Shown here piece by piece: positions 17,128 to 33,852 of a stretch of 64,000 nucleotides of DNA (positions are counted from its first letter, which is position 1; every line of letters begins with the position of its first letter). The stretch spans positions 1,370 through 65,369 of the forward strand of contig JAUSIH010000046.1 of the NCBI GenBank assembly GCA_030648205.1, in the 5' to 3' direction. Position numbers and translations under genes: made by a program. The notes under the pieces are model-generated. The model was not told the origin of the DNA, did not search any database, and worked only from the letters and a program-made list of their open reading frames with translations. The stretch is from Dehalococcoidia bacterium. GTDB taxonomy: Bacteria > Chloroflexota > Dehalococcoidia > JAUSIH01.

Positions 17128-17457
17128 TCATTCAGCGCATCCCGTTATGGCGAGCCAACTACCTTCGGGGAGTATATCAGGAAGGCGAGGCTGGAGATAA
17201 GCTCTCCGCAGCTTTATCACCCCATCCCTCGTGGCCTGCACTGCAGCGCCTCCGCCAGGCCTGCCGTGATCCTTCCGGTACCGGAAGGACGAACGATGCG
17301 CGGCCTGGATTGCCTCCGCGCCGGACAGGTCGGCGATTGGGATGGTTGTACGAGTGTGGGTTGATAGATTGATCCAGATCTCGTGGTCGCCTTTCGCTTT
17401 GCGGTCAAGCTCGCACCCCAGCCCTCGCAACCTCCGCGTAAGCTCTCGGTAGTTCAC
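17128..17457 (-). CDS. HicA-family toxin (mRNA interferase) with an atypical C-terminus that reads into a duplicated comM 3' fragment
   Basis: The first 40 aa (MNYRELTRRLRGLGCELDRKAKGDHEIWINLSTHTRTTIP) match the HicA/YcfA-like fold. The following IADLSGAEAIQAAH... is encoded by DNA near-identical to the 3' end of comM (18305-18390). Confidence 0.55.
   Translation of the reverse strand: MNYRELTRRLRGLGCELDRKAKGDHEIWINLSTHTRTTIPIADLSGAEAIQAAHRSSFRYRKDHGRPGGGAAVQATRDGVIKLRRAYLQPRLPDILPEGSWLAITGCAE
17205..17345. repeat. degenerate duplicate of the last ~85 bp of comM (two matching blocks of 41 bp and 26 bp separated by a 54-bp substitution)
   Basis: tcaccccatccctc[gt]ggcctg[c]actgcagcgcctccgcca ... 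gcctccgcgccgga[c]aggtcggc[g]at matches 18308-18390. The alternative frame ends in ...AEALQCRPRGMG*, compared with comM ...AEALQYRPRGMG*. Confidence 0.65.
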
Positions 17458-17717
17458 GCCGCGACAAGCACCTCGCTCGGGATGCCTTTACCGCCCACGT
17501 CAACAGACGTGTCTTCAATCTCCCTGGGAAGGGGGTCCCCTTTGGACTTGTACGACTCGATGAAGGCCGTAGCCACGCTTTGCAAGTTGCCCAGAGCGTC
17601 GGCGGCGGTATCCCCCCACGCGCGGCAGCCGGGGAGTAGGGGGACTTCAGCCAGGTATTTGCCCTCGGTCTCCCTGGTAGGTTCGTGCATTATGATGGGC
17701 AATTTGTACAGCTTCAT
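17454..17717 (-). CDS. HicB-family antitoxin (UPF0150, RNase H-like fold)
   Basis: YLAEVPLLPGCRAWGDTAADALGNLQSVATAFIE matches the HicB N-domain signature. It overlaps hicA by 4 bp. Confidence 0.7.
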   Translation of the reverse strand: MKLYKLPIIMHEPTRETEGKYLAEVPLLPGCRAWGDTAADALGNLQSVATAFIESYKSKGDPLPREIEDTSVDVGGKGIPSEVLVAA

Positions 17718-17724
17718 ACTGGTC

Positions 17725-17943
17725 TCACGCCTCTACAGCAACATACTCAGCCCTGGTGCGTGGCTCGGGTACGGGTAGCTTGTCCTCGATAAGACTTTGC
17801 ACATGGAACTCAATGGCTTCACGCATGTTTCGTAGCACTTCTTTCGGCGTGTCCCCAACCGCCACGCATCCAGGGATATCCGGCGAGTAGGCAGAGTAGT
17901 TTCCGTCTGCCTTCTCAGCAACAATCAAATACCGACGTGTCAT
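17725..17943 (-). CDS. second HicB-like antitoxin paralog (UPF0150)
   Basis: YSAYSPDIPGCVAVGDTPKEVLRNMREAIEFHVQSL; 72 aa. Confidence 0.65.
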   Translation of the reverse strand: MTRRYLIVAEKADGNYSAYSPDIPGCVAVGDTPKEVLRNMREAIEFHVQSLIEDKLPVPEPRTRAEYVAVEA

Positions 17944-18304
17944 TTCTTGTACCCCCTTATCTGCGCCTGTTTGAATATGCTGTGGAGGGTCCCCGACGCC
18001 AAGTCCTTGCCCAGGCTCCCTGGAACGGTAACAAGGCCGGGTATAACAGGGTGTTTGTATTGCCGGTGGCTGCCTCTGGTCCGAGCTAGTACCTACTTGC
18101 GAAAAAGGGCGGTATCATCAACCGCTCGTGGTGAGCTTGTCGAACCATGAGCGGCTCGCCCTTCGACAAGCTCAGGGTGAGCGGGGCTGGGTTCGGCTGT
18201 GTGTACGCTGATTTCTGCAACTAAGTACTAGATACCAGCCATCGGCCTCCAGCATAGCTATGACCTCGCGCACTTTCATTATAGCTTACGAACCATCAGT
18301 CTAT

Positions 18305-19831
18305 TCACCCCATCCCTCTCGGCCTGTACTGCAGCGCCTCCGCCACGTGGACGACACCAATCGCCTCCGCGCCGGAGAGGTCGGCTATCGTCCGCGCCAG
18401 CTTAAGGATGCGGTGGAAGGCCCGCGCCGACAGGTGCAGTTGCTTCATGGCCGCCTGCAGCAGTCCCTTGGTCGGCGTGTCCATCTGGCAGTGCTGGCGC
18501 ACCTCCATCGCCGTCATATCCGCGTTCGCCAGGACGCTCCGCGAGGTGGAGTAGCGCCGCCTCTGGACCTCCCGCGCCGCCTCGACCCGCGCCCGCACCG
18601 TCGCCGAGCCTTCGCCGGAGCGGTCGTCCACCAGCTTCTCGTACTCGACGCGCGGCACCTCGACGAACATGTCTATGCGGTCGAGGAGCGGCCCGCTGAT
18701 GCGCTTCTGGTAGCGCGAGACCAGGCTGGCGGCGCAGGTGCAGGGCTTGAGGGGGTCGCCGTAGTAGCCGCAGGGGCAGGGGTTCATCGCCGCCACCAGC
18801 ATGAAGCTCGCGGGGAACGTGACCGTGCCCTGGGCGCGGCTGATGGTCACCACGCGGTCCTCCATCGGCTGGCGCAGCACCTCCAGCACGTTGTGCCCGA
18901 ACTCCGGCAGCTCGTCCAAGAACAGCACGCCGCGATGGGCCAGGCTGATCTCACCCGGATGGGGCTGCCGTCCGCCGCCGACGAGTCCCGCGTGCGAGAT
19001 GGTGTAGTGCGGCGAGCGGAAGGGGCGCTGCGTCACGAGGGGCGTGTCCGAGGGCAGAAGGCCGCTGACGCTGTAAATTTTGGTGACCTCCAGCGCCTCG
19101 TCCATCGTCATCTTGGGCAGGACGGCGGCAAGGGCGCGCGCAAGGAGGGTCTTGCCACTGCCCGGCGGGCCGCTCATCAGGAGGTTGTGCCCGCCCGCCG
19201 CCGCGATCTCCAGCGCCCGCTTGGCGTGCTCCTGCCCCTTGATGTGCGCCAGGTCCGCTCCGCTCGGCCCGTCGTCCACGGCTGGCGGCGGTCCTTCCGC
19301 GGAAGAATAGGGCGCGATGGACGCCTCTCCCCGAAGGTGCGCCACCAACTCGGTCAGCGCGCCCACGGGCAGAATTGTCAGGTGGTCCACCAGAGATGCC
19401 TCTCTGGCGTCGGATGCGGGGGCGTACACGGTTCGGATGCCCTGCTGGCGGGCCAGCGCCACCATAGGCAGAATGCCTTGTGTATGACGCACGCCGCCGT
19501 CCAGCGACAGCTCACCCAGGAACAGCGTCTCCGTCGCGTCGAACGCCACCTGCCCGGAGCTGAGCAGAATGCCGATGGCGATTGGCAGGTCATAGGCGGG
19601 GCCTTCCTTCTTGAGGTCGGCGGGGGCCAGGTTGACCGTGATGCGCTTGAGGGGGAACTCGCAGCCGGAGTTGCGGATGGCGGCGCGGACGCGCTCCTTG
19701 GCCTCCTGCACCGCCATATCCGGCAGGCCGACGATGGTGAAGCTGGGCAGCCCCGGCGAGATGTCCACCTCCACCTCGACGATGGCGCCGTCCATCCCCA
19801 CGATGGCGCAACTCCGGACCTTTGCAAGCAT
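18305..19831 (-). CDS. comM: YifB/ComM family Mg-chelatase-like AAA+ ATPase
   Basis: N-terminal Lon-like domain, Walker A LLMSGPPGSGKT, the CPCGYYGDPLKPCTC zinc motif and a C-terminal ...RILKLARTIADLSGAEAIGVVHVAEALQYRPRG. Confidence 0.9.
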   Translation of the reverse strand: MLAKVRSCAIVGMDGAIVEVEVDISPGLPSFTIVGLPDMAVQEAKERVRAAIRNSGCEFPLKRITVNLAPADLKKEGPAYDLPIAIGILLSSGQVAFDATETLFLGELSLDGGVRHTQGILPMVALARQQGIRTVYAPASDAREASLVDHLTILPVGALTELVAHLRGEASIAPYSSAEGPPPAVDDGPSGADLAHIKGQEHAKRALEIAAAGGHNLLMSGPPGSGKTLLARALAAVLPKMTMDEALEVTKIYSVSGLLPSDTPLVTQRPFRSPHYTISHAGLVGGGRQPHPGEISLAHRGVLFLDELPEFGHNVLEVLRQPMEDRVVTISRAQGTVTFPASFMLVAAMNPCPCGYYGDPLKPCTCAASLVSRYQKRISGPLLDRIDMFVEVPRVEYEKLVDDRSGEGSATVRARVEAAREVQRRRYSTSRSVLANADMTAMEVRQHCQMDTPTKGLLQAAMKQLHLSARAFHRILKLARTIADLSGAEAIGVVHVAEALQYRPRGMG

Positions 19832-19856
19832 AAGGACTCCAGACGGAAGGATAAGC

Positions 19857-20318
19857 TCAGGCTATCTGGACGACGGCTTCGACCTCGACGGGCGTGTTGT
19901 GGTACAGAGTGTACACGCCCACCGCCGAGCGCGTATGGCGGCCCGCCTCGCCGAACGCCTGGGTGATGAGATCGGAGAACCCGTGCAGGACCGCGGGCGT
20001 ATTGTGGAACCCGGGGGCGCAGTTGATGAAGCCCAGGACCTTGACCCAGCGATGGATTCTGTCCAGGTCGCCCAGGTAGCCCTTGAGCGTGCCCAGCATG
20101 GCGACTCCCGTCAGCCGCGCTGCCTCGTAGCCCTGCTCCAGGGTCAGCTCGCCGCCAACCTTGCCCGTGACCAGCGGCTTGATGTTCGCGTCGAAGGGGC
20201 CGTGGCCGCTGACGTACACCAGCTTGTCCACGGTGACGCACCGCACCCGGTTCGGCGCGTCCTGCCACGCTGAGGGAAGGACGATGCCCATCTCGCGCAA
20301 ACGCTCTTCGACAACCAT
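19857..20318 (-). CDS. ridA: RidA/YjgF/TdcF family reactive-intermediate (enamine/imine) deaminase
   Basis: YVSGHGPF...GELTLEQGYEAARLTGVAMLGTLK...SAVGVYTLYHNTPVEVEAVVQI. The start was chosen at MVVEER. Confidence 0.8.
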   Translation of the reverse strand: MVVEERLREMGIVLPSAWQDAPNRVRCVTVDKLVYVSGHGPFDANIKPLVTGKVGGELTLEQGYEAARLTGVAMLGTLKGYLGDLDRIHRWVKVLGFINCAPGFHNTPAVLHGFSDLITQAFGEAGRHTRSAVGVYTLYHNTPVEVEAVVQIA

Positions 20319-20331
20319 GCGACACACCTCC

Positions 20332-20371
20332 GCGGACTGCGACCCGCCCCATTATAGCCGCGACGCCGCCT
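20332..20371 (-). promoter_or_regulatory. 40-bp direct-repeat copy 1, carrying a perfect TATAAT -10 hexamer on the minus strand ~35 bp upstream of the ridA start
   Basis: cgcggactgcgacccgccccattatagccgcgacgccgcc. Its reverse complement contains ggcTATAATgg. Confidence 0.45.
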
Positions 20372-20446
20372 GATGCAGGACATTGCGGCTGTACCGAGTG
20401 CTAACGGAGCATACTCGTTTAGTTTCCTTTTCTTCCTAACACGCCA

Positions 20447-20677
20447 CTAAGACCTCGGACGTTTGAGGTACAGCTCACAGCGTATTGCTGTGCGAGTTAT
20501 CAAGCTTAGTGTGCCAGTTAGCTCCCATCCTTGCTCGCCCAGGGTATTCAATAAGGGGCCGGGGTTGTACCAGTCACCGCCGGGACCTCTTACTTTTTCG
20601 AACTTCCCCGAACGCCCGTTGCTATCAACCCAATTAGATTCGTAGACCACGATGACCAAGTACTCCCACTTTTGCAT
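20447..20677 (-). CDS. DUF4177-like small protein
   Basis: 76 aa beginning MQKWEYLVIVVYESNW..., typical of DUF4177 (MxKWEYKVV...). The coding region is markedly lower in GC than its flanks. Confidence 0.55.
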   Translation of the reverse strand: MQKWEYLVIVVYESNWVDSNGRSGKFEKVRGPGGDWYNPGPLLNTLGEQGWELTGTLSLITRTAIRCELYLKRPRS

Positions 20678-20713
20678 AGTACTCCTCTCTCGTCACCTAC
20701 CCTTTAGCCAAAG

Positions 20714-20753
20714 CGCGGACTGCGGCCCGCCCCATTATAGCCGCGACGCCGCC
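20714..20753 (-). promoter_or_regulatory. 40-bp direct-repeat copy 2 (1 mismatch to copy 1), carrying a TATAAT box ~58 bp upstream of the DUF4177 gene start
   Basis: cgcggactgcggcccgccccattatagccgcgacgccgcc. Confidence 0.45.
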
Positions 20754-20804
20754 ACTTCTCCATCGGGCGCAGGCGCTATACTCAAGGTGCGGGAAAGGAG
20801 CGCA

Positions 20805-21545
20805 ATGCCGTTCACCACGGATGTCCAGACGATGACCAGAACGGGCATGGAGCGCCTTCTGGACCAGATGGAGGGCCCCGGCCTTGGACGGGTGACACTC
20901 TACCTTCCGCCCGCGTCTCTCCTCGCTATCCGGACGCTGCTCGCCGGGGCGGACCCCGAACTGGCCGACGAGGTGGCGCGCAAGGCCGACGACACGTGGT
21001 CGGGCGCGGCGGTGTTCCTGTCCGCCGACCAGGCGTATATCGTCGCGCCTCCATTCCCCATCCGTGCCGAGAGTCGCAGCGACGGCTGGGACGGCGCGCC
21101 GCTGCGCGCGCTCTTCGCTCGGCGCTATCTCCTGGGCGTGGTGCTCCTGAGGCTGGGGGCGTACGCCGTCGGCGTGCTGGACGGCGACGAGATGGTCGTC
21201 TCCAAGGCGGACACGCGCTACGTGAAGGGCAAGCACCACGCGGGCGGGTGGTCGCAGCAGCGCTTCGCGCGTAGACGTGAGAAGCAGATGCGCGAGCTGT
21301 TTGACGAGGCGTGCGAGGTGGCGCGTGACTGTCTGGCGCCCTACGAGCGGCGGCTGGACTACATATTCCTCGGCGGTGAGAGGTTGACGCTGCTGGCTTT
21401 CCGCAAGCGGTGTCCCTATCTGGAGAGGCTCGCCGAGAAGATAGCGCCGCGCATTCTTGAGGTGGAGCGGCCCAACCGCGGGGCGCTGGAAGGCATCCCC
21501 CGCGAGGTCTGGAAGTGCCGCGTCACCCTGTTCCGGCGGGCGTGA
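20805..21545 (+). CDS. putative Vms1/ANKZF1-like (VLRF1 family) release-factor-fold peptidyl-tRNA hydrolase domain protein; hypothesis, otherwise a conserved hypothetical protein
   Basis: SD aaggag is 7 nt upstream of the ATG at 20805. Basic motif KGKHHAGGWSQQRFARRREKQMRELF (a GxxQ followed by RFxRRRE), which I recall as the VLRF1 catalytic loop. No other recognisable domain. Confidence 0.4.
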   Translation: MPFTTDVQTMTRTGMERLLDQMEGPGLGRVTLYLPPASLLAIRTLLAGADPELADEVARKADDTWSGAAVFLSADQAYIVAPPFPIRAESRSDGWDGAPLRALFARRYLLGVVLLRLGAYAVGVLDGDEMVVSKADTRYVKGKHHAGGWSQQRFARRREKQMRELFDEACEVARDCLAPYERRLDYIFLGGERLTLLAFRKRCPYLERLAEKIAPRILEVERPNRGALEGIPREVWKCRVTLFRRA

Positions 21546-21560
21546 CGGGCGAGGACGCCG

Positions 21561-24500
21561 CTACCTGCGGGAACCGCGCGACTCCACGGGCTCCGGGGCC
21601 TCTCCAAAGTGCCCGGGCGCTGCCCGACCTTGCCCGTGGCCGCGCAGTCGCTCCAGGAATTCATCCATGATGGAGTAGACCACAGGTACGACTATCAGGG
21701 TCAGGATGGTGGACGTGATAAGCCCGCCGATCACGGCCAGGCCCATGGGCTGACGCAACTCCGAGCCCGCGCCAAGGCCGAGCGCCAGAGGCAACATGCC
21801 CATGATCATGGCGGCCGTCGTCATGAGGATGGGCCGGAGCCGGATAGGGCCTGCGGTGAGCAGGGCTTCCCCGCGGGGCATTCCTCGACTTCGCAGCGTG
21901 TTCGTGTAGTCCACGAGCAGGATGGAGTTCTTCGCCACGAGGCCCATGAGCAGGATGATGCCGATCATCGCCATCATGCTGATGGGGAATCCCGCGGCGA
22001 ACAGAAGGCCCAGCGCGCCCACGCCCGCCAGCGGCAGGGCTGCCATGATGACCAGGGGCTGGGTGAAGGAGCCGAACTCGGACGCCAGGATCATGTACAC
22101 GAAGAGGACGGAGAGGCCCAGAGCCATGAGCAGGCTGCTGAACGTTTCGCCGAGCTGCTCTGACTGGCCGAATGGGACAATGCGCACGCCGGCGGGCAGA
22201 GGCATCTCCCGAAGCGCCTGCTGAAGGTCGCTGACGGCCTCGCTCAGCGACTGGCTGCCAAAGTTGGCGGATATGACGACCTGACGCTCGCGGTTTTCCC
22301 TGTCTATGCGGCCGGGGCCTGTGGCCGGCGCGATGGTGGCGACGCTCGCAAGGCGGACCGTGCCGCCCCCGGGAGTGGCGACGGGAATAGCCAGGATGGC
22401 GTCCTCTTGCTGCCTGTCCTGGGCGCGCAACTGGACGGTTATATCTATATCTTCGTCCGGACCGCGGAGCTTGGAGATGGCGTCTCCATTGACCAGCGTA
22501 CGCAGCGTTGTGGCTACGGCGGCCGGGGAGAGGCCCACTTCCGACGCGCGGTCCTGGTCCACCAGCACTCGCAGTTCCGGCTTCCCGAGCCGGAGGCTGG
22601 AGGCGACGTCAGTGAAGCCTCGCCCGTTCTCCTTCAGCCGAGCCATGACGGTGTCGGCAGCGCGGCTCAGGTCGTTCACGTCGCTGCCGCGCAGGGCCAC
22701 CTGGACGACCTTGCTGCCAAATGTGCTCAGACTGCTGGACCCGGCGCCCAGGGACTCCTCCCCCAGCGGAGAGATGTTGGTGCGCGCGTTCGCCAGATCG
22801 GGCCACGTCGCAAACTCCTTGCGGAGGCGGTTCAAAGGCGGGAAGGCGTGGCCGATGCCGGTCGTGACGAAGAAGTTTGCTTTCTCCCCCTCCGTGCTCG
22901 ACGAGCCGCTCGCGAACGCGCCGCCGCCGACAGTGGTGTAGACCACCTTGACCTCGGGTTGCGCCCTGATCACGGACTCCATCTTCCGGGCCACGGTGTC
23001 AGTCTGGGCAAGGGCTGTGCCCGAGGGCAACTCCACGGACACGTAGAAGAAGCCCCTGTCTATCTGCGGCTGGAGCTCGCTGCCCATGAGGGGTATCAGG
23101 ACGATCGCCATGACGAACGACGCGAGTCCGATGCCGAGCACGAGCGGCCGGTGGCCGAGCGCCCAGCGCAGGACGGGCTTGTAGAGGCCTTCGGCTCGGT
23201 CGTACACTCTGCCCCAGGCCGCCAGCAGCGGGGCCTCCCGGCGCTTGCCCTCGATCCGGCGGAAGAAGAACGTGGAGAGCATGGGCGCAAGGGTCAACGC
23301 CTCCAGCAAGGACAGGAGGACGGCCACGGCCACCACCAGCCCGAACTGGTTCAGGAACCGGCCCACCAGGCCCGTGGTCAGGGTGATGGGGAAGAAGACC
23401 GCCACGATGACCAGGGATACCGCTATCACGGCACGGGCTATCTCCGCCGTGCCGAGTTTTGCGGCGGTCCGCGGGTCCTCGCCCTGCTCCATGTGGCGGA
23501 AGATGTTCTCGCGGACGACGATGGCGTCGTCAATGAGGAGGCCGACCACCAGGGAGAGGGCCAGGAGGGTCACCATGTTCAGGGTGAAGCCCATCAGGTA
23601 GATCGCGCCGAAGGTGGCCACGATGACGATGGGGAGGCCGATCACTGTAATCAGTGTGTTGCGCAGGTCTCGGAAGAACAGGAAGACGACAAAGGCGGCG
23701 GCTAGCCCTCCGATAATCAGGCTGCGGTAGAGGTCGTCATTGAAGGTGCGGACGTTCGTGGACTGGTCGAAGACCGAGAAGACGTCCATGTCCGTTCGGT
23801 CTTGCTGAATGCGGGCCATTTCCTTGAGGGCGGCGTCTGCCACACGGACGGTGTTGGTCCCTGACTGTTTGTGGATGGCAAGGCTGACGGCTTCCTGCCC
23901 GTTGATGCGGGTTATACTCCGCGCTTCTTTGACGCCCTCGCGCACATCCGCTATGTCGCCAAGCCGGACGGGAGCGCCCTCGGCGCCGCCTGCCACGACC
24001 AGGGCGCGCAGGTCGTCCACGCTGTGGAACTCGCTGGCGGTCCGCAGCAACAACTCGCGCTGGCCCTGGGTGACGCGCCCGGCGGGCAGGCTCAGGTTGT
24101 TGGCCTGGATGGCGCGGACCACCTGCTCCACGGGGATGTTGTACGCGGCCAGCTTGGTCGCGTACAGGTCGACCAGCACCTGCTTCTCGCGCCCGCCGGA
24201 GATGGTCGCGGCGGCCACGCCGGGCACGCGCTCAAAGCGAGGCTTGATGTCGTCGTCCACCAGCTTTCGGAGGTCCGCCGGATTGCGGCCCTGCCTGTCC
24301 CGGATGCCGACGGTCATGATGGGCAGGGATGCCAGGTCGAACCGCTTGATGACCGGCTCCTGGACGCCATCCGGGAGGCTGCGCCGGACCGTGGCCAGCC
24401 GCTCGCGCACGTCCGCGGAGGCCTGACGCGCGGCGTAGTCCATGTTGAACTCAAGGGTGACCACGGATACGCCTTCCTGGGATGTCGACCGGATGGCCTC

Positions 24501-24725
24501 GATATAGTTCAGGGAGGCGAAGGCGTCCTCAAGCGGCTTGGACACGTCCCGCTCAACGTCCTCGGCGGAGGCGCCCGGGTAAACCGTCTGGACGACGACC
24601 ACGGGGACGGAGATGTCCGGCAGTAGGTCAAGGCCTGTTTGAAAGAAAAACACCGTACCCATGACGAGCACGGTGAGGACGCACATGGTGATGAAAACCG
24701 GCGCGCGTATTGCCAGGTTCCACAT
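21561..24725 (-). CDS. efflux RND transporter permease subunit (HAE1/AcrB family)
   Basis: 1054 aa with 12 TM segments and two large periplasmic loops. AcrB-like motifs include the PFFFRRIEG region and LLMGLVAKNSILLVDY. Confidence 0.9.
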   Translation of the reverse strand: MWNLAIRAPVFITMCVLTVLVMGTVFFFQTGLDLLPDISVPVVVVQTVYPGASAEDVERDVSKPLEDAFASLNYIEAIRSTSQEGVSVVTLEFNMDYAARQASADVRERLATVRRSLPDGVQEPVIKRFDLASLPIMTVGIRDRQGRNPADLRKLVDDDIKPRFERVPGVAAATISGGREKQVLVDLYATKLAAYNIPVEQVVRAIQANNLSLPAGRVTQGQRELLLRTASEFHSVDDLRALVVAGGAEGAPVRLGDIADVREGVKEARSITRINGQEAVSLAIHKQSGTNTVRVADAALKEMARIQQDRTDMDVFSVFDQSTNVRTFNDDLYRSLIIGGLAAAFVVFLFFRDLRNTLITVIGLPIVIVATFGAIYLMGFTLNMVTLLALSLVVGLLIDDAIVVRENIFRHMEQGEDPRTAAKLGTAEIARAVIAVSLVIVAVFFPITLTTGLVGRFLNQFGLVVAVAVLLSLLEALTLAPMLSTFFFRRIEGKRREAPLLAAWGRVYDRAEGLYKPVLRWALGHRPLVLGIGLASFVMAIVLIPLMGSELQPQIDRGFFYVSVELPSGTALAQTDTVARKMESVIRAQPEVKVVYTTVGGGAFASGSSSTEGEKANFFVTTGIGHAFPPLNRLRKEFATWPDLANARTNISPLGEESLGAGSSSLSTFGSKVVQVALRGSDVNDLSRAADTVMARLKENGRGFTDVASSLRLGKPELRVLVDQDRASEVGLSPAAVATTLRTLVNGDAISKLRGPDEDIDITVQLRAQDRQQEDAILAIPVATPGGGTVRLASVATIAPATGPGRIDRENRERQVVISANFGSQSLSEAVSDLQQALREMPLPAGVRIVPFGQSEQLGETFSSLLMALGLSVLFVYMILASEFGSFTQPLVIMAALPLAGVGALGLLFAAGFPISMMAMIGIILLMGLVAKNSILLVDYTNTLRSRGMPRGEALLTAGPIRLRPILMTTAAMIMGMLPLALGLGAGSELRQPMGLAVIGGLITSTILTLIVVPVVYSIMDEFLERLRGHGQGRAAPGHFGEAPEPVESRGSRR

Positions 24726-25344: not shown

Positions 25345-25575
25345 CGTCGCCCCGCGCTTGTATCACACGCCTTCTCCCTGATACCCGCGCTCACCCCCGG
25401 AGACGCTTGCCCTGTCGGTGCCTCTCGCGACGGACCAGTAAGCTGGCTTGCTGGCAAAGGTCTGTAAGGTCTCGTTGGCAGGTGTTGCTGACCTCCTCAG
25501 TTGCACTTGTGTTGCCTCGGCCAATCCCGTAGAATCCGCAAGGAAACTCACGTAAACGTCGCATGCGGAGGAGCC

Positions 25576-26376: not shown

Positions 26377-26458
26377 CGGCGTCTTGCGGGCGCGGAGCCG
26401 TCCGGCGGCTTGTGCTATCATGGACGGGTGTAGCCGTCCGCGGCTTCGGGTGTAACGA

Positions 26459-26533
26459 GCGGGGGTAATTCAGTGGTAGAATGCCACCCCTCCAAGGTGG
26501 ACGTCGCGGGTTCGAATCCCGTCCCCCGCTCCA
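26459..26533 (+). tRNA. tRNA-Gly (anticodon UCC)
   Basis: Manual cloverleaf: acceptor stem GCGGGGG/CCCCCGC, D-arm attc-agtggta-gaat, anticodon arm ccacc-cctccaa-ggtgg (anticodon TCC), T-arm gcggg-ttcgaat-cccgt, discriminator U73 and an encoded CCA. G1-C72, C2-G71, G3-C70 and U73 are Gly identity elements. Confidence 0.8.
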
Positions 26534-26703
26534 GCATGCCTGTTGTCAGCTTCGGTCCCGGGTGCGACATGGTTTCAGGCCTCGTCTTCTTGCATCTCTT
26601 ATCGGACGCGAGTTTTGATTGGCAAGGCTTGGATCGTTTCTTGGGATAGCTGCTTGAGACACTCTCTGGTGGGTCGTACGGCGCTTGAGGAGGGTGCACG
26701 AAC

Positions 26704-26946
26704 ATGGTAAAAACCGCAACGACGAAGCCCCAAGCGAAGTTTACGGCGGTGTTCCTGCGTGACGGCAAGTGGTGGATTGGGTACGCGGAGGAGCTGCCGG
26801 GAGCGAACGCCCAGGGCAAGACGCTTGAGGAGGCCCGCGAGAGCCTGCGCGAGGCCGTCGTCCTGATTCTTGAAGCCAACCGCGAGCTGACGCGCCGCGA
26901 GACCCTTGGAAAGGATGTCCTGAGAGAAGAGCTTTCGGTCGCCTAA
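26704..26946 (+). CDS. HicB-family antitoxin (UPF0150)
   Basis: FTAVFLRDGKWWIGYAEELPGANAQGKTLEEARESLREAVVLILE. Confidence 0.7.
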   Translation: MVKTATTKPQAKFTAVFLRDGKWWIGYAEELPGANAQGKTLEEARESLREAVVLILEANRELTRRETLGKDVLREELSVA

Positions 26947-26947
26947 C

Positions 26948-27133
26948 ATGACGCGCCGCGCCTTGCTTCGCCACCTCCACGGGCATGGTTGCGCGCTACT
27001 CCGCGAGGGCAGGAGACACTCCGTCTATTGGAACCAAGGCGCCCGCAGGACATCCACGGTGCCGCGCCATGTGGAGATATCCGAGAAGATGGTGCAGAAG
27101 ATATGCCAGGACTTGGGGATTCCACGGCCATGA
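26948..27133 (+). CDS. HicA-family toxin (YcfA-like mRNA interferase)
   Basis: MTRRALLRHLHGHGCALLREGRRHSVYWNQGARRTSTVPRHVEISEKMVQKICQDLGI matches the PF07927 pattern (GSH..Y, TVP.H, I..DLG). It starts 1 bp after the hicB stop. Confidence 0.7.
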   Translation: MTRRALLRHLHGHGCALLREGRRHSVYWNQGARRTSTVPRHVEISEKMVQKICQDLGIPRP

Positions 27134-27340
27134 GCCGCGCGGGGCGCGGTAAGAGGCGCTGACGCTGGTCTAACCCTTTCGTAAGCCCCCCGCTTGCCCT
27201 TTCTCCCCTCAATCGTCCACAATGGATGCACCGGAGACATCGGAGCACTCACGCCATCCAGGTCTCGGACATCGCCTGCCGCCAGGTCGCGACGCCGCGC
27301 ATGAGCGGCCCGGATTGAGCACGAGCACCAAAGGAGCGCC

Positions 27341-29389
27341 ATGCCGAACCGTCTGGTGAACGAGACAAGCCCTTACCTGCGCCAGCACGCGCATAACCCG
27401 GTGGACTGGTACCCGTGGGGCGAGGAGGCGCTGCAAAAGGCGCGGGCGGAGGACAAGCCCATCCTGCTGAGCATCGGGTACTCCGCGTGCCACTGGTGCC
27501 ACGTGATGGAGCGGGAGTCCTTCGAGGACCCGGCCATCGCGCGCCAGATGAACGAAGGCTTCGTCTCCATCAAGGTGGACAGGGAGGAGCGTCCCGACCT
27601 GGACGCGGTCTATATGCAGGCAGTCCAGGCCATGACCGGCCGGGGCGGCTGGCCGCTCACGGCTTTCCTGACGCCGGACTGCAAGCCCTTCTATGGCGGC
27701 ACCTACTTCCCGCCGGAGGACCGCCACGGCGGCCCCGGCTTCCCGCGCGTGCTGGCGGCGGTGGTCGAGGCCTACCATACGAAGCGGGCCGACCTGACGC
27801 GCGCCGCCGATCAGCTCGTGTCCAAGCTCCGAGAGAGCACGGACGTGCGCACCGACGGCGCGGCGCTTACCGCGGACCTCTCGCAACGGGCCTACAGCAC
27901 CATTTACGCCGGTTTTAATCGGCAGTCGGGCGGCTTCGGCGCGGCACCCAAGTTCCCCCAACCGATGACGCACGAGTTCGTGCTGCGTTCCTGGGCCCGC
28001 ACCCGCGACCCGGAGGCCCTGGAGATGGTGGAGTTCACGCTGGCCGTGATGGCGATGGGCGGCATCTACGACCACCTCGGCGGCGGGTTCCATCGCTACT
28101 CCACGGACGACATTTGGCTGGTCCCGCACTTCGAGAAGATGCTCTACGACAACGCCCTCCTTGCGCGGCTGTACCTGCACGCCTACCAGGCGACGGGCAG
28201 GCCGTTCTATCGGCGCGTCGCTGAGGAGACGCTGGACTACGTGCTGCGCGAGATGACCAGCCCGGAGGGCGGGTTCTATTCCAGCCAGGATGCGGACAGC
28301 GAGGACGTGGAGGGCAAGTTTTACGTCTGGACACCCCGGCAGGTCAGGGACATCCTGGGCAAGGACGGCGACGTCTTTTGCCGCTACTTCGACGTCACGG
28401 AACAGGGCAACTTCGAGGGGCAGAACATCCTGCACGTGCTCACGCCGCCGGACGCGCTGGCGCGGGAGATGGGCGTGCCGGAGGACGAGATGGCCCGCGT
28501 CGTGGGCGAAGGACGTCGCAAGCTGCTGGAGGCCCGCCGGAAGCGCGTGCCCCCAGCCCGCGACGACAAGGTGCTGACCGCGTGGAACGCCATGACTCTT
28601 CGAAGCCTCGCGGAGGCGGCGGCCGTGCTGGGTCGCGACGACTATCGCCGGGCGGCGGTCGCTAACGCCTCTCTCCTCCTGACCGCGCTGCGTCCCCAGG
28701 GCCGCCTGCTGCGCTCGTACAAGGACGGCCAGGCGCGCGGCAAGGGCTACCTGGAGGACTACGCGTGCCTTGTGGACGGGCTGCTCGCCCTCTACGAGGC
28801 CACCTTCGAGCGGCGGTGGTTCGACGAGGCGCGCTCGCTGGCGGACCAGATGCTTGAGCTGTTCTGGGAGCCGGCGCAGGGCGTCTTCTACGACACGGGC
28901 CGCGACCATGAGGCGCTCGTGTTCCGTCCCCGCGACGTCTTCGACAACGCGACGCCTTGCGGCGGGTCGGTGGCCGCGGACGTCCTGCTCCGCCTGGCGA
29001 CGCTGACCGGCGAGGAGAGCTACGCCAGCCGCGCCGTGGCGGCCCTCGACTCCGTGCACGGCCATATGACTCAGTACCCGCTGGGCCTCGGACACTGGCT
29101 CTGCGCGCTCAGCTACCATCTGGCGACGCCCAAAGAGATCGCCATCATCGGCCCGCGCGACCATCCGGCCACCCGCGCCCTGGCGCACGCCGCGCACCGG
29201 CCCTTCGTTCCGCACAAGGTTATCGCCGGGTGCGCCCCGGACGACTCTTCCGCGGAAGGGGATGGCATCCCGCTGCTCAAGGGCAGGGGCATGGTCAACG
29301 GGCGTCCCACGGCCTATGTCTGCGAGCGGAACACCTGTAAGCTCCCCGTCACCGATCCGGATGCGCTGCTCAAGCAGATGGGGGAGTAG
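27341..29389 (+). CDS. thioredoxin-domain protein YyaL-like (DUF255 N-terminal Trx-like domain plus six-hairpin glycosidase-like C-terminal domain)
   Basis: [45 protein letters not shown] is the signature N-terminus of the family; 682 aa. Confidence 0.85.
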
Positions 29390-30124
29390 ATGGAGCGTCC
29401 CGTCCAGTTTGCAAGCGACGGCCTGCGCGTCAGGGGCGACATGCATATTGTCGGCCCCGCTGCTCCGTGGGTGGTCATGTCGCATGGGCTGGAGAGCAGC
29501 AAAGACGGGGACAAGTGGCCCGTGCTGGCGGGCGCGCTCGTCCAGGTGGGCATCAGCGCGCTGCGGTTTAACCATCGCGGCTGCGGCCAGGGCCCACAGG
29601 CCAGCGAGGGTGCGTTCCAGGACACGACGCTGACCGGACGCATCGCCGATTTCCGCGCCGCGCTGGACATGGCGGCCTCAACGGCAGGAGACGGCCCCGA
29701 TCGTATCGGGGCGGTAGGATCCAGCTTCGGCGGGATGGTCGTCGCGGCGGCGCGCGACCCGCGGGTGCGTGTACTGGCCCTGCTGGCGACGCCCGTGGCG
29801 ATACCCGCGCCCGCCGCGCAGGAGATCGTGGACGGCTACCACTACCTCCAGTCGGGCAGCCGCCTCTGCGCGGGGTTCTTCCGGGACGTGGCGCGGTACG
29901 ATATACTGGCGGCGGTGCGGGACTTCCGTGGGCCTGTCCTGGTGGTGCACGGCGACAGGGACGACGTGGTGCCGGTGGAGCATGCGGTGCGTCTGCACGA
30001 CGCCGCTCGCGGCCCGAAGCGGCTTGAGGTCATCCCAGGCGCCGACCACGTCTTCAGTGCGCCGGAGCACCGTGAGCGGGCCGTCGCGCTGTGCGTGGAG
30101 TGGTTCAAGACTCATCTTGCCTGA
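29390..30124 (+). CDS. alpha/beta-fold hydrolase
   Basis: VVMSHGLES...GSSFGGMVV (nucleophile elbow GxSxG)...VVHGDRDDVVP...GADHVF (catalytic His). It abuts the yyaL-like gene. Confidence 0.75.
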   Translation: MERPVQFASDGLRVRGDMHIVGPAAPWVVMSHGLESSKDGDKWPVLAGALVQVGISALRFNHRGCGQGPQASEGAFQDTTLTGRIADFRAALDMAASTAGDGPDRIGAVGSSFGGMVVAAARDPRVRVLALLATPVAIPAPAAQEIVDGYHYLQSGSRLCAGFFRDVARYDILAAVRDFRGPVLVVHGDRDDVVPVEHAVRLHDAARGPKRLEVIPGADHVFSAPEHRERAVALCVEWFKTHLA

Positions 30125-30138
30125 GCAAGGAGACGTCC

Positions 30139-30660
30139 GTGACTCTACAGTCGTTCCTGTCCACGTCCCTGAAGGAGCTGCATCAGTGTCTGGACGACGC
30201 CACCAGAGGGCTGACGTCGGAGCAGCTCCACTGGCGGCCCGGGGGTCGGGTGAACCACATCGGATTCACGCTCTGGCACTACGCACGCACGCAGGACAAC
30301 GTCATCCGATTCGTCGTTCAACGCCGGCCCACCATCTGGATGGAGGGCGGATGGGACAAGCGGTTCGGCCTGGACTCCAAGTCCCAAGGAACGGGCATGA
30401 GCCAGGAGGACGCCTTCAAGCTCCGCATCAACTCGCTCGACGACTTCCGTACGTATATGCGCCAGGTCTTCAAGGAGACCGAGGCCTACGTCGCGAACGT
30501 CCAGGAGGCGGAGCTGGAGCGCATGCTGCTGGTCAAGCCGCTCGGGGAGATGCCTGTGCGACAGGTGCTGGGCAGGCCCGTTGTGACCCACGGCTTCGGC
30601 CACCTGGGGGAGATATACACCATCCGCAGTGCGATGGGCATGCCGGGGAACCCCATCTAG
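30139..30660 (+). CDS. DinB/YfiT-like (DinB_2) four-helix-bundle metal-dependent protein
   Basis: A GTG start at 30139 with the SD aaggagacg avoids overlap with the upstream gene. The protein has HIGFTLWHYARTQD and a C-terminal HGFGHLGEIYTIR, both DinB_2-type His motifs. Confidence 0.65.
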   Translation: MTLQSFLSTSLKELHQCLDDATRGLTSEQLHWRPGGRVNHIGFTLWHYARTQDNVIRFVVQRRPTIWMEGGWDKRFGLDSKSQGTGMSQEDAFKLRINSLDDFRTYMRQVFKETEAYVANVQEAELERMLLVKPLGEMPVRQVLGRPVVTHGFGHLGEIYTIRSAMGMPGNPI

Positions 30661-30768
30661 CGGGGCGCGCCGGGCTGCTCAGACGCTTGACGGAAGTCTG
30701 TTGCCGCGCTAGAGTCTGAAACGTTGGAAGGGACAGCCGTCCGCTTCCACGGGTGAAAGGAGGCTCCT

Positions 30769-31380
30769 ATGGCCGTAGCCACAACCATCCGCATGAAGTC
30801 GCCCGTCGCCAGTGCGCCGGACACCAGGAACCGCCTCGCGCCGCTCGTGGACGACGTGCGCGGCAAGGCAGCCGGTTTCCGCGTCCAGTGGAGCAGCTTC
30901 GACGTGTTCATGAAACGCTTTGAGGAGCTGCTGATGGAGCGCAAGCAGCCGCGGTCCGTCCATATCATGGACCAGAACTGGGAGTCTCCCGCCGTCATCA
31001 AGAAGGGCCTCAAGATGAATTACGCGGACCCGGGCTGGGCCAAAGAGTGGGACGAGTTCGCCAAGAACGCGGACTGGGCGGTGGTTGGGTTGGCGGCCTG
31101 AGGCGGCTGCACCTCGTGGAGTATCCACGACACGGTCGAAGCCCAGAAGCGCGGCATCCCGACTGTGACCATCGTCACCGAGCAGTTCGTCAGCCTCGCC
31201 AAGAGCGTCGCGAAGTCCATGGGCTATCCCGACCTGCCGATGGTGGTCGTCCCGCACCCGTTCGAGACCCTTTCTCACGACACGATCCGCAAGATCGCGG
31301 AAGAGAAGTACGACGAGATTCTCTCCAAGGTGCAGAAGGCCAAGGAAGTGCGCGTGCCCGCCCAGGGCGCGGCCTCGTAG
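30769..31380 (+). CDS. putative selenoprotein with a UxxC redox motif (UGSC-family-like); in-frame TGA at 31099-31101 read as Sec
   Basis: ORFs 30769-31101 and 31165-31380 are in the same frame, joined only by the TGA. The joined product reads ...WAVVGLAA-U-GGCTSWSIHDTVEAQKRGIPTVTIVTEQ.... A hairpin tcgtgga-gta-tccacga begins 13 nt after the TGA. Confidence 0.6.
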
Positions 31381-31390
31381 CTCGAACGTC

Positions 31391-32452
31391 ATGACTACTG
31401 AGTACATCGAGGTCGAAAACGACATAGACAAGGCGTTTCAGGCCGCGTACGAGCAGGGCTGGACGGACGGTCTGCCCGTCATTCCGCCCACGGAGCAGCG
31501 CGTGGCGGCCATGCTGGCGACGGTGGACCGTAAGCCGAGCGACGTCATCGGCCTGCTACCGCCCCGGAACGGGCAGGCTATCGTCGAGAAGGTGGCGGTC
31601 AGCGCGGTCATGGCGGGATGTCTGCCGTCCTATTTCCCCGTGGTGGTGGCGGCCATCGAAGCCGCCGCCGACCCCGCGGTCTATCTGCGCGGCATCAACT
31701 CCACCACGAACCCGGTGGCGCCTTTGCTGATCATCAACGGGCCTATCCGCAAGGAGATTGAGGTCAACTGTAGCTGGAGCGTGATGGGGCCGGGGCCACG
31801 CGCCAACGCCACCATCGGGCGCGCGTTCAGCCTGTGCATGATCAACATCGCGGGGCGCATCCCCGGCGAGGTCACGAAGTCCACGCACGCATCGCCGGGG
31901 CGCTACACGTGGTGCATCGGCGAGTACGAGGAGAAAAGCCCGTGGGAGCCGCTGCACGTGGAGCGCGGCTTCAAGAAGGAGGACAGCACAGTCACGCTGC
32001 TCGCTCCGACGGGCCACATCAACGCGCTGGACATGCTGGGCCAGACCGGCGACGAAATCCTGACCATGATCACGTCGTGCCTCAGCCTGATGGCGAGCAA
32101 CAACTTCTTCAACCGCTACGGCGAGGGCGACATGGGCGTCATCCTCTGCCCGGCGCACGCGGACATCATCAAACGCGACATCGGCGGCAAGCAGAAGGCG
32201 AAGGAAGCGCTGCTGGAGAAGACGAGCCGATGGATTCGGATGGCGGACATTCCGCCGCATCTCAAGGCGGCCGTTGAAGGGCTGAACCCTGGCTCGAAGC
32301 AGATCGAGGGCGAGTTCGCCCGGCTGGCGGCCCGCGCCGACCAGTTCGTGCTGGTGGTCGCGGGCGGCCTCGGCGGGTATCACTCCGTGGCGCTGCCCAC
32401 GTTCGGCGGGCCGCAGACCATCACGTGGGCCATCAAGGCGAAGAAGCGGTAG
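31391..32452 (+). CDS. conserved hypothetical protein (353 aa), probably co-transcribed with the upstream UxxC selenoprotein; its 3' end is duplicated ~1.2 kb downstream
   Basis: The ATG lies 11 bp after the selenoprotein stop. No confident family assignment from sequence. The C-terminal ...ARLAARADQFVLVVAGGLGGYHSVALPTFGGPQTITWAIKAKKR is duplicated at 33492-33638. Confidence 0.55.
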   Translation: MTTEYIEVENDIDKAFQAAYEQGWTDGLPVIPPTEQRVAAMLATVDRKPSDVIGLLPPRNGQAIVEKVAVSAVMAGCLPSYFPVVVAAIEAAADPAVYLRGINSTTNPVAPLLIINGPIRKEIEVNCSWSVMGPGPRANATIGRAFSLCMINIAGRIPGEVTKSTHASPGRYTWCIGEYEEKSPWEPLHVERGFKKEDSTVTLLAPTGHINALDMLGQTGDEILTMITSCLSLMASNNFFNRYGEGDMGVILCPAHADIIKRDIGGKQKAKEALLEKTSRWIRMADIPPHLKAAVEGLNPGSKQIEGEFARLAARADQFVLVVAGGLGGYHSVALPTFGGPQTITWAIKAKKR

Positions 32453-32690
32453 GGCCGTCCGGTCAGAGCGGCCTGACTCCAGAGGCGCCAGCACCAAAAC
32501 GGGGTGGCCCGAACTAGAAGGGGCCACCCCGTTTCTCTTTGACATGGCGGAACGATTGCCTATTGGGAGTCGCCTTGCGGCTTGAGGCCCCTGTGGTGGG
32601 TTCTCTGGACAGCACTCGAACCTGCTACGGCCTGACCTTGTGCCGCAGGCTGAGGCGACTGCTAAACATGAAGTAAGAGCTCACGCACCG
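32302..32690. repeat. direct repeat copy A (~380 bp): the 3' end of gene 31391-32452 plus ~240 bp downstream
   Basis: ggctggcggcccgcgccgaccagttcgtgct...aaggcgaagaagcggtag...ggtcagagcggcctgactccaga[g]gcgccagcaccaaaacgggg... is repeated at 33492-33850 at ~85-90% identity. Confidence 0.7.
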
Positions 32691-32740
32691 TGGCGTTGAT
32701 GCAACGGCCTACCATGTGGTTGCCACGCGCCGACAGCCCT

Positions 32741-33208
32741 CTACGCCAGTTGCAGTCCGAGAAAATACGTTCGGTAGTACCCACGGTCTCTGGTCAGCAG
32801 TCGGTCAGCATGGAGGGTAGCATGGGCACCGATGAGGAAATCGGCCACGACGTGTTGGCGTGGGATGAGATGTGCTCCACACCTCGCGCAGTGAATGTCC
32901 TGTGAAGTTCCACAGGAAGGGCAAACCAGGGAATCTGGCCGCCGGCGCAGGTACTCGCGCCATGCCTTGCCTGCCAGGTAGAGGGCCTCGGTGCCCGAGG
33001 GCTGTAGTCGGATACCGGTATCTTCCAGGAACCGGTCCAGTTCCTCACGAGCGGGGAAATGGGGAGACAGCTCCGCGTAAACGGCTTCGGAGACGACCGT
33101 CGCGCCAGCTCTAAGGGACTCGGTCAGGGCCTGCTCTGAGGCGTCTCCGTGCGGAGCACCAGGGACAAGGACGTCCAGGAGGATGTTCGTGTCCACCGCA
33201 GTGATCAC
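32741..33208 (-). CDS. VapC-family PIN-domain toxin with an inserted CxxC...CxxC zinc-ribbon
   Basis: MITAVDTNILLDVL (PIN acidic residues) and a C-terminal ...DFLIGAHA. The inserted segment is CPSCGTSQDIHCARCG. It overlaps vapB by 4 bp. Confidence 0.7.
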   Translation of the reverse strand: MITAVDTNILLDVLVPGAPHGDASEQALTESLRAGATVVSEAVYAELSPHFPAREELDRFLEDTGIRLQPSGTEALYLAGKAWREYLRRRPDSLVCPSCGTSQDIHCARCGAHLIPRQHVVADFLIGAHATLHADRLLTRDRGYYRTYFLGLQLA

Positions 33209-33444
33209 TGCCCGCGCATCTCCTTGACAAGCTCGTCGGGATCCTGCTCCGTCAGGTTTTTCAGGTAGCCCCTATACTTTTTGAGCGGAGCGGGAGGGAG
33301 GCGCTTCCTGAGGCGGAACACGCCATCTTCCTCCATGAATTCCAGTTTGTCTCCTGGCCGGAGCCCCATGCGCTCGCGGACCTCTTTGGGGATGGTCACC
33401 TGTCCTTTGGTGGTAATCCTCGTCATAGCCATGTCTGCCCTCAC
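33205..33444 (-). CDS. AbrB/MazE/SpoVT-family antitoxin (VapB-like)
   Basis: RITTKGQVTIPKEVRERMGLRPGDKLEFMEEDGVFRLRK matches the swapped-hairpin beta-barrel signature. Confidence 0.7.
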   Translation of the reverse strand: MRADMAMTRITTKGQVTIPKEVRERMGLRPGDKLEFMEEDGVFRLRKRLPPAPLKKYRGYLKNLTEQDPDELVKEMRGQ

Positions 33445-33491
33445 GGTAAGGAATTAATTCCTTACTCTATTGTAAGGGAAGGCGCGCATTG

Positions 33492-33850
33492 ATGCAACTG
33501 GCATCGAGGCTGGCGGCCCGCGCCGACCAGTTCGTGCTCGTGGTCGCGGGCGGCCTCGGCGGGTATCACTCCGTGGCGCTGCCGACGTTCGGCGGGCCGC
33601 AGACCATCACGCGGGTGATCAAGGCGAAGAAGCGGTAGTGCCATCTGGTCAGAGCGGCCTGACTCCAGAGTCGCCAGCACCAAAACGGGGGGCCTATTTA
33701 GCTTAGGCCGCCCCGTTTCTCGTTGCCGTGTCGGAAAGATTGGCTATTGGGAATCGCCTCGCGGCTCGAGTCCCCTGTGGTGGGCGTCAGGGGACAGTGC
33801 TCGAACTTTCTGCAGTCTGAGTTGGCGGCTGGGGGCGGCTGCTGGCTACA
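33492..33850. repeat. direct repeat copy B (~360 bp), a diverged duplicate of 32302-32690 that includes a 3' fragment of gene 31391-32452
   Basis: It encodes ...QLASRLAARADQFVLVVAGGLGGYHSVALPTFGGPQTITRVIKAKKR* in the + frame. It carries a 13-bp deletion relative to copy A and ends 2 bp before the stop of the low-GC gene at 33853. Confidence 0.7.
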
Positions 33851-33852
33851 TC

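Follow-up and report, generated by a model that had tools for sequence, protein, structure and literature searches.

A window of 64 kb from the Dehalococcoidia bacterium contig JAUSIH010000046.1 (by the window we mean the whole stretch of 64,000 nucleotides analysed here) contains three small gene units, each enclosed by a pair of long direct repeats. The first, composed of hicAB toxin-antitoxin (TA) modules, lies at the 3' end of comM; the second, a single small open reading frame (ORF), lies at the promoter of ridA; the third, a vapBC module, lies at the 3' end of a gene without a Pfam family, here called gene X. Because related loci hold an empty site for all three, the units are insertions, and they are read as recent ones. 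The repeat copy that now completes comM is foreign, and the native end has been pushed downstream of the cassette. The evidence tentatively favours entry of such cassettes by recombination anchored in the homologous end of a conserved gene.

The comparison set consisted of related metagenome contigs and fetched loci, labelled L001 to L101, with 1.46 Mb fetched in total. L081 is an 89-kb metagenome contig in synteny with window positions 21628-44637 at about 86% identity, and L084-L087 encode a ComM protein 93% identical to that of the window. The highest DNA identities, 94% and 91%, are those of L089 and L101, the closest relatives, and L082 and L083 are more distant. The gene X protein is identical to MDO8531635.1 from a Dehalococcoidia metagenome-assembled genome (MAG). 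An exact-sequence look-up of the window ComM gave no match, and no close relative was found among the GTDB representative genomes, in which the best ComM identity was 72% and synteny ended at comM.

In the whole window, just three local direct repeats reach both a length of 28 bp and an identity of 90%; every other repeat family was at most 84% identical or internal to a protein. Each of the three pairs encloses a small ORF unit with low GC content at third codon positions (GC3). The values are 0.55 for hicB1, 0.61 for the 76-aa ORF at ridA and 0.66 for vapC, compared with 0.83-0.93 for host genes; the GC content of the window is about 66%. Measured against the published description of insertion with long target duplication (Furuta et al. 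2010), all three sites show a unit that is lacking in a relative with a single repeat copy, and the sizes also agree, with duplications of 40, 84 and about 315 bp, inserts of 0.34-1.0 kb and neither integrase nor transposase. A scan of about 56 window ORFs for integrase and transposase families gave no match, and no recombinase was found between any repeat pair of the window. The relatives gave the same result: the intervals between their repeats lacked matches to integrases and transposases, and no recombinase turned up within ±5-10 kb of any related cassette. The cassettes do not have the properties of insertion sequences or transposons: a transposase was not found, the duplications are variable, ranging from 40 to 315 bp, and the two ends of the vapBC unit described below are not similar to each other. 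A motif shared by the six junction regions was not found at a score better than in shuffled sequence (a fraction of 0.68-0.81 of the shuffles scored no higher than the observed value).

A preliminary description of this DNA had assigned a structural scar to each of four TA modules, three of the HicAB type and one VapBC. The repeats at comM, at the 40-bp site and at gene X are real, but the module near tRNA-Gly is scarless. Its statement that no integrase lies between the repeat pairs agrees with the ORF scan, and its idea of minimal cassettes is supported by units that have no recombinase, by the empty sites of relatives and by the recurrence of the pattern with other TA cassettes. The generalisation that every TA cassette sits on a duplication goes too far, since an old resident module has no scar and one of the bracketed cassettes is not a TA cassette. 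The repeats are indeed derived from the target, and from the 3' end of a gene in two of the three cases, but in the 40-bp case the repeated sequence is the ridA promoter.

The target of the first insertion is comM (18305-19831, minus strand), which encodes a YifB/Mg-chelatase-like ATPase, as judged by the Pfam families of homologues. The duplication of its 3' end, as first described, is borne out by 84 bp of homology between 17217-17337 and 18305-18388, with 93% identity between 17217-17257 and 18305-18345 and 90% between 17309-17337 and 18360-18388. The displaced copy (17217-17337, minus strand) combines these 84 bp with a palindrome-bearing insert of 37 nt and is joined, in the same reading frame, to a truncated hicA. 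In L084-L089, hicAB is missing after comM, which leaves the site empty. In a 3'-end alignment with five relatives, the three closest ones and the displaced remnant share the sequence ...AIQAAH(L)AEALQYRPRG..., and the functional comM of the window ends in ...AIGVVHVAEAL...; amino acid identity to the closest relatives in this comparison is 87-95%. Within a gene that is otherwise 91-94% identical, 8 of 18 nt differ in this patch, which is located in the last 60 bp or so. The IGVVH type is that of L001, in which hicA follows directly, and the junction between the comM stop and the hicA start is homologous between the window and L001. Because both the patch and the junction match L001, the gene-attached end of comM is foreign and arrived with hicAB, and the IQAAH-type remnant is the displaced native end. 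The position of the hicAB junction within comM is about -84 in the window versus about -125 in L001. The 37 extra nucleotides of the remnant (within 17258-17308) hold the perfect palindrome CCTTCCGGTACCGGAAGG, exactly at the position of the non-native patch in the functional copy.

Two hicAB modules can be recognised in the comM insertion, and both are defective. In the first, the predicted toxin gene hicA1 (17940-18279, minus strand) is disrupted, and its stop codon overlaps the start of the predicted antitoxin gene hicB1 (17725-17943, minus strand; HicB_lk_antitox, E=9e-12) in the sequence ATGA. Their products are 80% and 82% identical, respectively, to HicA and HicB downstream of comM' in L001. 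The second consists of hicB2 (17454-17717, minus strand), a further HicB-like antitoxin gene with a Pfam score of 25.5 bits, below the cut-off of 27, and hicA2' (17338-17457, minus strand), a truncated HicA gene that covers positions 1-38 of the 58 in the PF07927 profile. The latter is cut after codon 40-41, where it meets the comM remnant; this outer junction has a 2-nt microhomology (CA). Neither hicA2' nor the split hicA1 retains a complete HicA domain (PF07927). The HicAB gene pairs of the window overlap or are 1-7 nt apart, in an operon-like arrangement with the adjacent HicB/UPF0150 gene.

The disruption of hicA1 is due to a palindromic insert of 142 bp (18086-18227, minus strand), similar to a miniature inverted-repeat transposable element, which splits the gene between the codons for DGWYL and ARTRG. 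Its imperfect terminal inverted repeats are TACTTAGTTGC and TACCTACTTGC, a target duplication of CTAG or TAG is possible, and one of its frames translates to ...LSLSKGEPLMVRQAHHER.... A search of the window and of 100 fetched loci gave no further copy. Beyond the remnant, a plus-strand frame at 16993-17216 runs toward it and ends in ...TFGEYIRKARLE; it looks like the start of a helix-turn-helix protein of the XRE/HigA type, presumably cut at the remnant. NCBIfam and Pfam gave no match to this frame, the fragment being too short for a fair test. The next gene (15687-16907) encodes a Pro/Thr-rich PD40 beta-propeller protein of 406 aa with internal DNA repeats of 132 bp, and its position in relatives (L085, 3348-5813) is taken by an 821-aa protein gene without DNA similarity.

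Gene X (31391-32452, plus strand; 353 aa) adjoins a UGSC-family gene and is the target of the third insertion. The gene-attached repeat copy (32322-32635, plus strand) gives a protein that ends in TWAIKAKKR. The displaced copy, the X' fragment (33508-33820, plus strand), ends in TRVIKAKKR and continues into native downstream DNA as in L083. The two copies align over 315 columns with 87% identity, rising to 95% over the first 183 bp, and consist of the last 131 bp of X and about 180 bp of downstream sequence, including a terminator hairpin with compensating changes and about 100 bp beyond it. The 380-bp repeats that had been described as derived from the neighbouring gene's 3' end are thus real, but they measure about 315 bp and combine 131 bp of X with downstream DNA. 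In L083, a single X 3' end is followed directly by the homologue of window 33508-35728, without vapBC, and the X 3' end is likewise single-copy in L081 and L101.

The distribution of changes between the two copies of X is informative. Over the 131 bp of coding sequence, 4-5 changes are unique to the gene-attached copy and none to the displaced copy, whose TRVIKAKKR ending is that of all five relatives; the non-coding part of the gene-attached copy diverges by about 20%. Divergence in place would lead to decay of the unconstrained fragment, and since the opposite is seen, one of the copies is probably allelic to another lineage. The outer junction (33507/33508) lies in a 7-nt microhomology, GGCTGGC, between the end of the vapBC unit and gene X. 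As judged from the sequences, the outer junctions at both comM and gene X look like illegitimate joints rather than the ends of site-specific elements. ARAGORN detected no tRNA downstream of gene X in relatives. The preliminary description had also suggested a mechanism that copies the 3' end of the target gene. This does not agree with a foreign gene-attached comM copy that displaced the native one, nor with unique changes confined to one copy of X; because of the comM patch and the gene X coding changes, the second repeat copy came with the cassette, at comM and probably at gene X, and was not copied at insertion.

The remaining insertion is that at ridA. A 40-bp sequence (20331-20370) stands directly upstream of the ridA ribosome-binding site and contains TATAAT on the minus strand. 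It is followed by a unit of 343 bp (20371-20713, minus strand) that carries one 76-aa ORF (20447-20677; GC content 0.55), and then by the right copy of the repeat (20714-20753), which is identical to the left one at 39 of 40 positions. In L084, L085 and L087 a single 40-mer separates ridA from the acVLRF1 gene and the 343-bp unit is missing; by this comparison the window carries a clean insertion of 383 bp, made up of 343 bp and a 40-bp duplication. Because the 40-mer holds TATAAT just before the ribosome-binding site, ridA and the inserted ORF each keep a promoter copy. The matches of the 76-aa ORF are weak and sub-threshold (DUF4177, E=0.064; Sp36 family, 24.9 bits against a cut-off of 50), no partner gene is present and PADLOC gave no match. 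A role as a TA gene was rejected for this single ORF, in which neither a toxin nor an antitoxin family can be recognised; of the proposed DUF4177 TA cassette with a 40-bp promoter duplication, only the duplication remains.

The insert at gene X can be followed through several genomes. The vapBC unit (32607-33514, minus strand; about 0.9 kb) contains vapC (32741-33208, minus strand), a predicted toxin gene with a PIN domain (E=7.8e-9) and a Zn ribbon, and vapB (33205-33444, minus strand), a predicted antitoxin gene of the AbrB/MazE fold (MazE_antitoxin, E=2e-12). The predicted vapB precedes vapC with a gene overlap of 4 nt (33205-33208), as in VapBC systems. The unit is conserved as DNA (78-84%) in L090, L092, L093, L097, L098 and L099, in differing genomic contexts, and the contigs of L098-L100 stop before its vapB-side boundary. 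Members of the family occupy three unrelated targets: gene X in the window, the 3' end of a CoA-transferase gene in L090 and tRNA-Ile in L097. The unit has a fixed end about 70 bp upstream of vapB, which directly abuts the repeat in the window, L090 and L097. Between 33445 and 33507, the palindrome CCTTACAATAGAGTAAGG-AATTAATT-CCTTAC is kept upstream of vapB in all six cassette copies and is probably an autoregulatory operator.

On the other side of the unit, about 130 bp beyond vapC, there is an element of 70-90 nt, here named M, with the consensus ...GCCTCAGCCTGGGCACCAGGTCAGGCCGCAGAAAGTTCGAG..CTGTCC.C...GCCCACC and a tail resembling a tRNA 3' end (GTTCGAG...GCCCACCA). The window has a native copy (33779-33827, minus strand), which is also found downstream of X in L083 without vapBC, and a second copy, M' (32606-32663, minus strand), which is a hybrid: its vapC-side half is of the cassette type and its X-side half of the native type. 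Elsewhere M occurs in L092 (4579-4660 and 5563-5625), L093 (3687-3765 and 4587-4665), L097 (about 5555-5625) and L083 (about 560-650), and it is absent from 94 other loci. In L092 and L093 it is also present upstream of the vapBC unit, so that in L092 it stands on both sides, and in L093 it flanks a neighbouring RHH/PIN module. In L097 the vapBC unit is part of an array at tRNA-Ile; the distal M ends with the exact 18-nt tRNA-Ile 3' end, and the flanking repeat reaches about 30 nt past the tRNA end (50 of 63 identical). In the same locus (4105-4657), tRNA-Ile is followed by a further integrase-less mini-insert, which has a retropepsin-like ORF of 124 aa (Asp_protease_2) and repeats the tRNA 3' end over 33 nt (32/33). 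The fixed end of the unit was considered as a degenerate copy of M and rejected, the similarity being not significant overall (most p>0.05; 2 of 25 comparisons at p<=0.015).

The only intact HicAB module of the window shows none of these signs. tRNA-Gly(TCC) (26459-26533, plus strand) is followed after 171 bp by hicB3 (26704-26946) and hicA3 (26948-27133), which together form hicBA3 (26704-27133, plus strand). The predicted HicA3 matches positions 2-58 of the 58 in PF07927 (E=3e-8), and hicB3 scores 27.1 bits, just below threshold. The scar postulated at the 3' flank of the tRNA gene was not found: no second copy of the tRNA-Gly 3' end exists anywhere in the window, and the search for local repeats around hicBA3 gave none above 12 bp in length at more than 90% identity. 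An orthologous module is kept at the same syntenic site in L081 (83% DNA identity) and in L084, where a hicB/hicA pair is present on the contig. Given this conservation, hicBA3 is an old inherited resident rather than a junction. In an Rfam scan of 16800-35300, this tRNA-Gly was the sole match.

The same pattern can be observed in relatives. In L081 (12720-13536) and L083 (2449-3284), the 3' end of a cytochrome c gene carries a parDE-like ParE-toxin/RHH pair inside a direct repeat of about 66-70 bp; the repeat consists of the last 54 bp of the gene and 12 bp more, and window 35663-35728 is the corresponding empty site. L090 and L091 contain a vapBC pair whose products are 88% identical to those of the window; it is bracketed by a repeat (101/113) that derives from a convergent CoA-transferase gene, namely from its 3' end. 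L001 has the order comM, a 430-aa gene, comM', hicAB and comM'', in which the second and third comM 3' fragments are identical at 38 of 38 positions at the contig end. In L059, from another phylum, an RHH/PIN pair is located between comM and comM fragments, and comM 3' ends are duplicated in L011 and L054 too. Flanking repeats were seen at 9 of the 11 distinct TA loci inspected, a tally from a non-random sample; a phmmer search for TA genes across the fetched 1.46 Mb, intended as an unbiased count, returned no families beyond those of the queries and gives no enrichment statistic.

Some other genes of the window deserve mention. The UGSC-family gene next to gene X (30769-31380) is one frame of 203 codons with an in-frame TGA at 31099-31101, followed by GGC GGC TGC (A-U-G-G-C), and probably encodes a selenoprotein; it is called as two split ORFs in L090 and L101 too. 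Downstream of gene X, a variable slot holds a 425-aa ORF of low GC content (0.50; 33853-35130) that is common to L083 and has no match in Pfam, NCBIfam or PADLOC. In L081 a gene for a TIR-like protein (weak Nuc_deoxyrib_tr match) takes this slot, and L082 and L101 have other DNA there. The segment 41409-42766, 1.36 kb that are absent from L081, was considered as a fifth case and rejected; a long repeat is missing and the joints show a microhomology of 4-5 nt (CTTG). It contains ORFs of 52 and 182 aa (GC3 0.55) without family matches and could be an unrecognised two-gene module. The missing long repeat indicates that not every indel follows the pattern. At 3611-5308, a site not covered by relatives, there is a gene for a GmrSD-type restriction endonuclease (GC3 0.53; PADLOC HEC-06, E=4e-172), which is probably another acquired defence gene.

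Homology-anchored insertion by a single crossover is favoured over a dedicated cassette recombinase, with a confidence that stays somewhat short of even. According to this reading, a cassette would come to adjoin a conserved gene in some donor lineage. A segment with the cassette and the adjacent piece of the gene, a surrogate 3' end, would then enter a naive relative, either as a circle closed by microhomology end-joining or as a one-ended fragment. A single crossover in the shared stretch, of the Campbell type or by homology-facilitated illegitimate recombination, would integrate it and push the native end downstream of the cassette, with an illegitimate outer junction. The target gene would remain intact because the imported end completes it, and a recombinase encoded in cis would be unnecessary. 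Entry of this kind explains why the target is intact and its native end displaced; it also accounts for repeats of variable length, an outer joint that is illegitimate, a cargo gene that is truncated and the lack of a recombinase. The differing junction positions and targets of one cassette family, and junctions that have no motif in common, also speak for it. The abundance and small size of TA modules, and the difficulty of losing them, may explain why such cargo is over-represented. An intermediate that is circular or one-ended, and a dependence on host recombination functions, are inferred from these structures.

Several observations weigh against this reading. L101, the closest relative, matches the gene-attached copy of X in the nine nucleotides after the stop codon, and its coding sites match the displaced copy, so that the signals as to which copy is foreign are mixed. 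The repeats of the 40-bp site (39/40), L001 (38/38) and L097 (32/33) are nearly perfect and fit a duplication made at insertion equally well. The vapB-side boundary is within ±6 bp of the window junction in four of five other contexts, among them L092, L093 and L097, and within about 20 bp in the fifth, L090; this fixed end and element M look like the defined ends of a mobile element, not like random fragment ends. In addition, the survey covers the 64-kb window and the fetched loci rather than a whole genome.

The fixed end and M lead to the strongest alternative, which is possible although on the whole unlikely: the cassettes may be non-autonomous miniature integrative elements, comparable to cis-mobilisable elements (CIMEs) or satellites, with att-like ends that are served in trans by an unlinked tyrosine or serine recombinase. 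Such mobilisation, an idea of the preliminary description, is most plausible for the vapBC unit, a discrete piece of about 0.9 kb found in six contexts with a constant vapB-side end and a terminal M; one would expect as much if the element had defined ends and had in the past recombined at a tRNA-like site. The presence of M on both sides of the unit in L092 and around the RHH/PIN module in L093, and the tandem array of L097 with its 32/33 copy of the tRNA 3' end and the exact 18-nt end on the distal M, also agree with it, and the hybrid M' of the window is what a crossover inside M would give. That hicAB adjoins the 3' end of comM in two lineages with ComM proteins just 72% identical might be explained in the same way. 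However, a recombinase was found neither in the 64-kb window nor within ±5-10 kb of related cassettes, and repeat length and junction vary even for the same cassette and target, as with the -84 and -125 positions in comM. The vapBC unit has three unrelated targets, the junctions have no motif in common, a cargo gene is truncated at one of them, and the fixed end of the unit is not a copy of M. Rfam matched a tRNA gene alone in 16800-35300, and M is unlike the core of an integron attC site: by inspection GTTCGAG does not fit GTTRRRY and an integrase was not found, although no dedicated attC model was run. With regard to a fixed attachment site, M is conserved at vapBC boundaries, while the other targets share no motif and the comM junctions vary. 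It is a rather doubtful extension that Chloroflexota harbour integrase-less mini-cassettes, mostly TA modules, with a fixed end, an M terminus and M-bounded arrays, moved by an unlinked recombinase. Such a system would be analogous to integrons and pdif modules, but with tRNA-like sites and a tolerance of long target-derived repeats.

Duplication in place is improbable as a general explanation; it supposes two cuts in the target at a distance of 40-300 bp, the joining of a linear cassette and gap filling that doubles the target. The near-perfect repeats just mentioned would follow naturally from it, as would the direct contact of the vapBC unit end with the repeat in the window, L090 and L097, and variable repeat length is a hallmark of the published pattern of restriction-modification (R-M) systems (PMC2853133). 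It does not account for a foreign patch in the functional comM copy with native sequence in the non-functional one, and for gene X it predicts the opposite of what is seen, as the unique coding changes are all in the selected copy; moreover, the cargo has no associated nuclease, the toxins belonging to the HicA and PIN (VapC) families. Chimeric joining of strain variants, which would make the duplications false, is very improbable because independent assemblies from different samples show the same structures (L081/L083; L090/L091; L093-L096); the window does come from a MAG, the two gene X copies do look like two alleles, and many vapC contigs of about 1 kb suggest that assemblies break around the cassette, but the comM remnant is marked by a 37-nt insert and reads in frame with a truncated hicA, and a clean insertion with duplication, as in the 40-bp case, is not expected from a graph error.

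TA modules are usually called mobile without a mechanism for the copies outside plasmids, phages and islands. The filled and empty sites of close relatives show single TA operons entering the chromosome beside conserved genes and leaving long target repeats, by way of which a unit could later be excised or amplified. With its conserved ends, the vapBC unit offers a concrete substrate for the question of mobilisation in trans.

Among known systems, the closest case is the insertion with long target duplication of R-M systems (Nobusato et al. 2000, Gene 259:99; Furuta, Abe and Kobayashi 2010, PMC2853133). There the duplication is variable, from more than 30 bp to about 400 bp, the insert is smaller than 20 kb and has no mobility gene, and the repeats often overlap the 3' end of a neighbouring gene; the mechanism is unknown, and DNA breakage by the cargo has been proposed as a common cause (PMC2853133). 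A 2014 review gives this mode for R-M systems only (PMC3874152), and literature searches did not find an equivalent description for TA modules. The anatomy fits except for the cargo: a small addiction-type unit missing in a relative, a long variable target repeat and no mobility gene are shared, but here the cargo is hicAB, vapBC or a small unrelated ORF, the phylum is Chloroflexota and the copies at comM, and probably at gene X, are not sisters, one having been imported. HicA and PIN (VapC) toxins are usually described as RNases. With toxins of RNase-type families, and with one unit that holds only an unrelated small ORF, DNA cutting by the cargo does not qualify as the shared cause, and the long-target-duplication pattern points to a general host pathway.

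Genomic islands at tRNA genes and gene 3' ends, together with CIMEs, share with the present units an element-borne 3' end that keeps the target intact and displaces the native end, and comM is a known insertion hotspot. Tandem arrays are a further common property, as in the comM array of L001 and in L097, where tRNA-Ile, an ORF, a tRNA 3' copy, vapBC and a tRNA-like end follow each other. The units described here differ in having no integrase, a size of 0.3-1 kb, varying junctions and repeat lengths, and illegitimate outer junctions. Another kind of sequential displacement, comparable to this one, is that of rhs and cdi orphan arrays. In effector-immunity and toxin-tip modules (PMC5361080), entry likewise takes place by recombination in the conserved end of the upstream gene, and the old 3' end and cargo are pushed downstream. 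The displaced 3' end encodes the toxin there, whereas comM, gene X and the cytochrome c gene are unrelated to the cargo.

In homology-facilitated illegitimate and Campbell-type recombination, one homologous anchor is combined with one microhomology junction, and foreign DNA is gained beside a conserved gene without a dedicated recombinase (PMC3240628). Experimental descriptions of these processes mainly involve deletion of recipient DNA, not duplication. Integron cassettes, among them the TA cassettes of chromosomal integrons, and the pdif modules of Acinetobacter plasmids are minimal, promoter-poor or single-operon units that often carry TA genes, have repeated sites and depend on a recombinase encoded elsewhere. 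They differ from the present cassettes, in which most repeats are derived from the target, M departs from the attC core and sites of the IntI or Xer type were not identified. Of the structures described here, the vapBC unit bounded by M has the best chance of being new.

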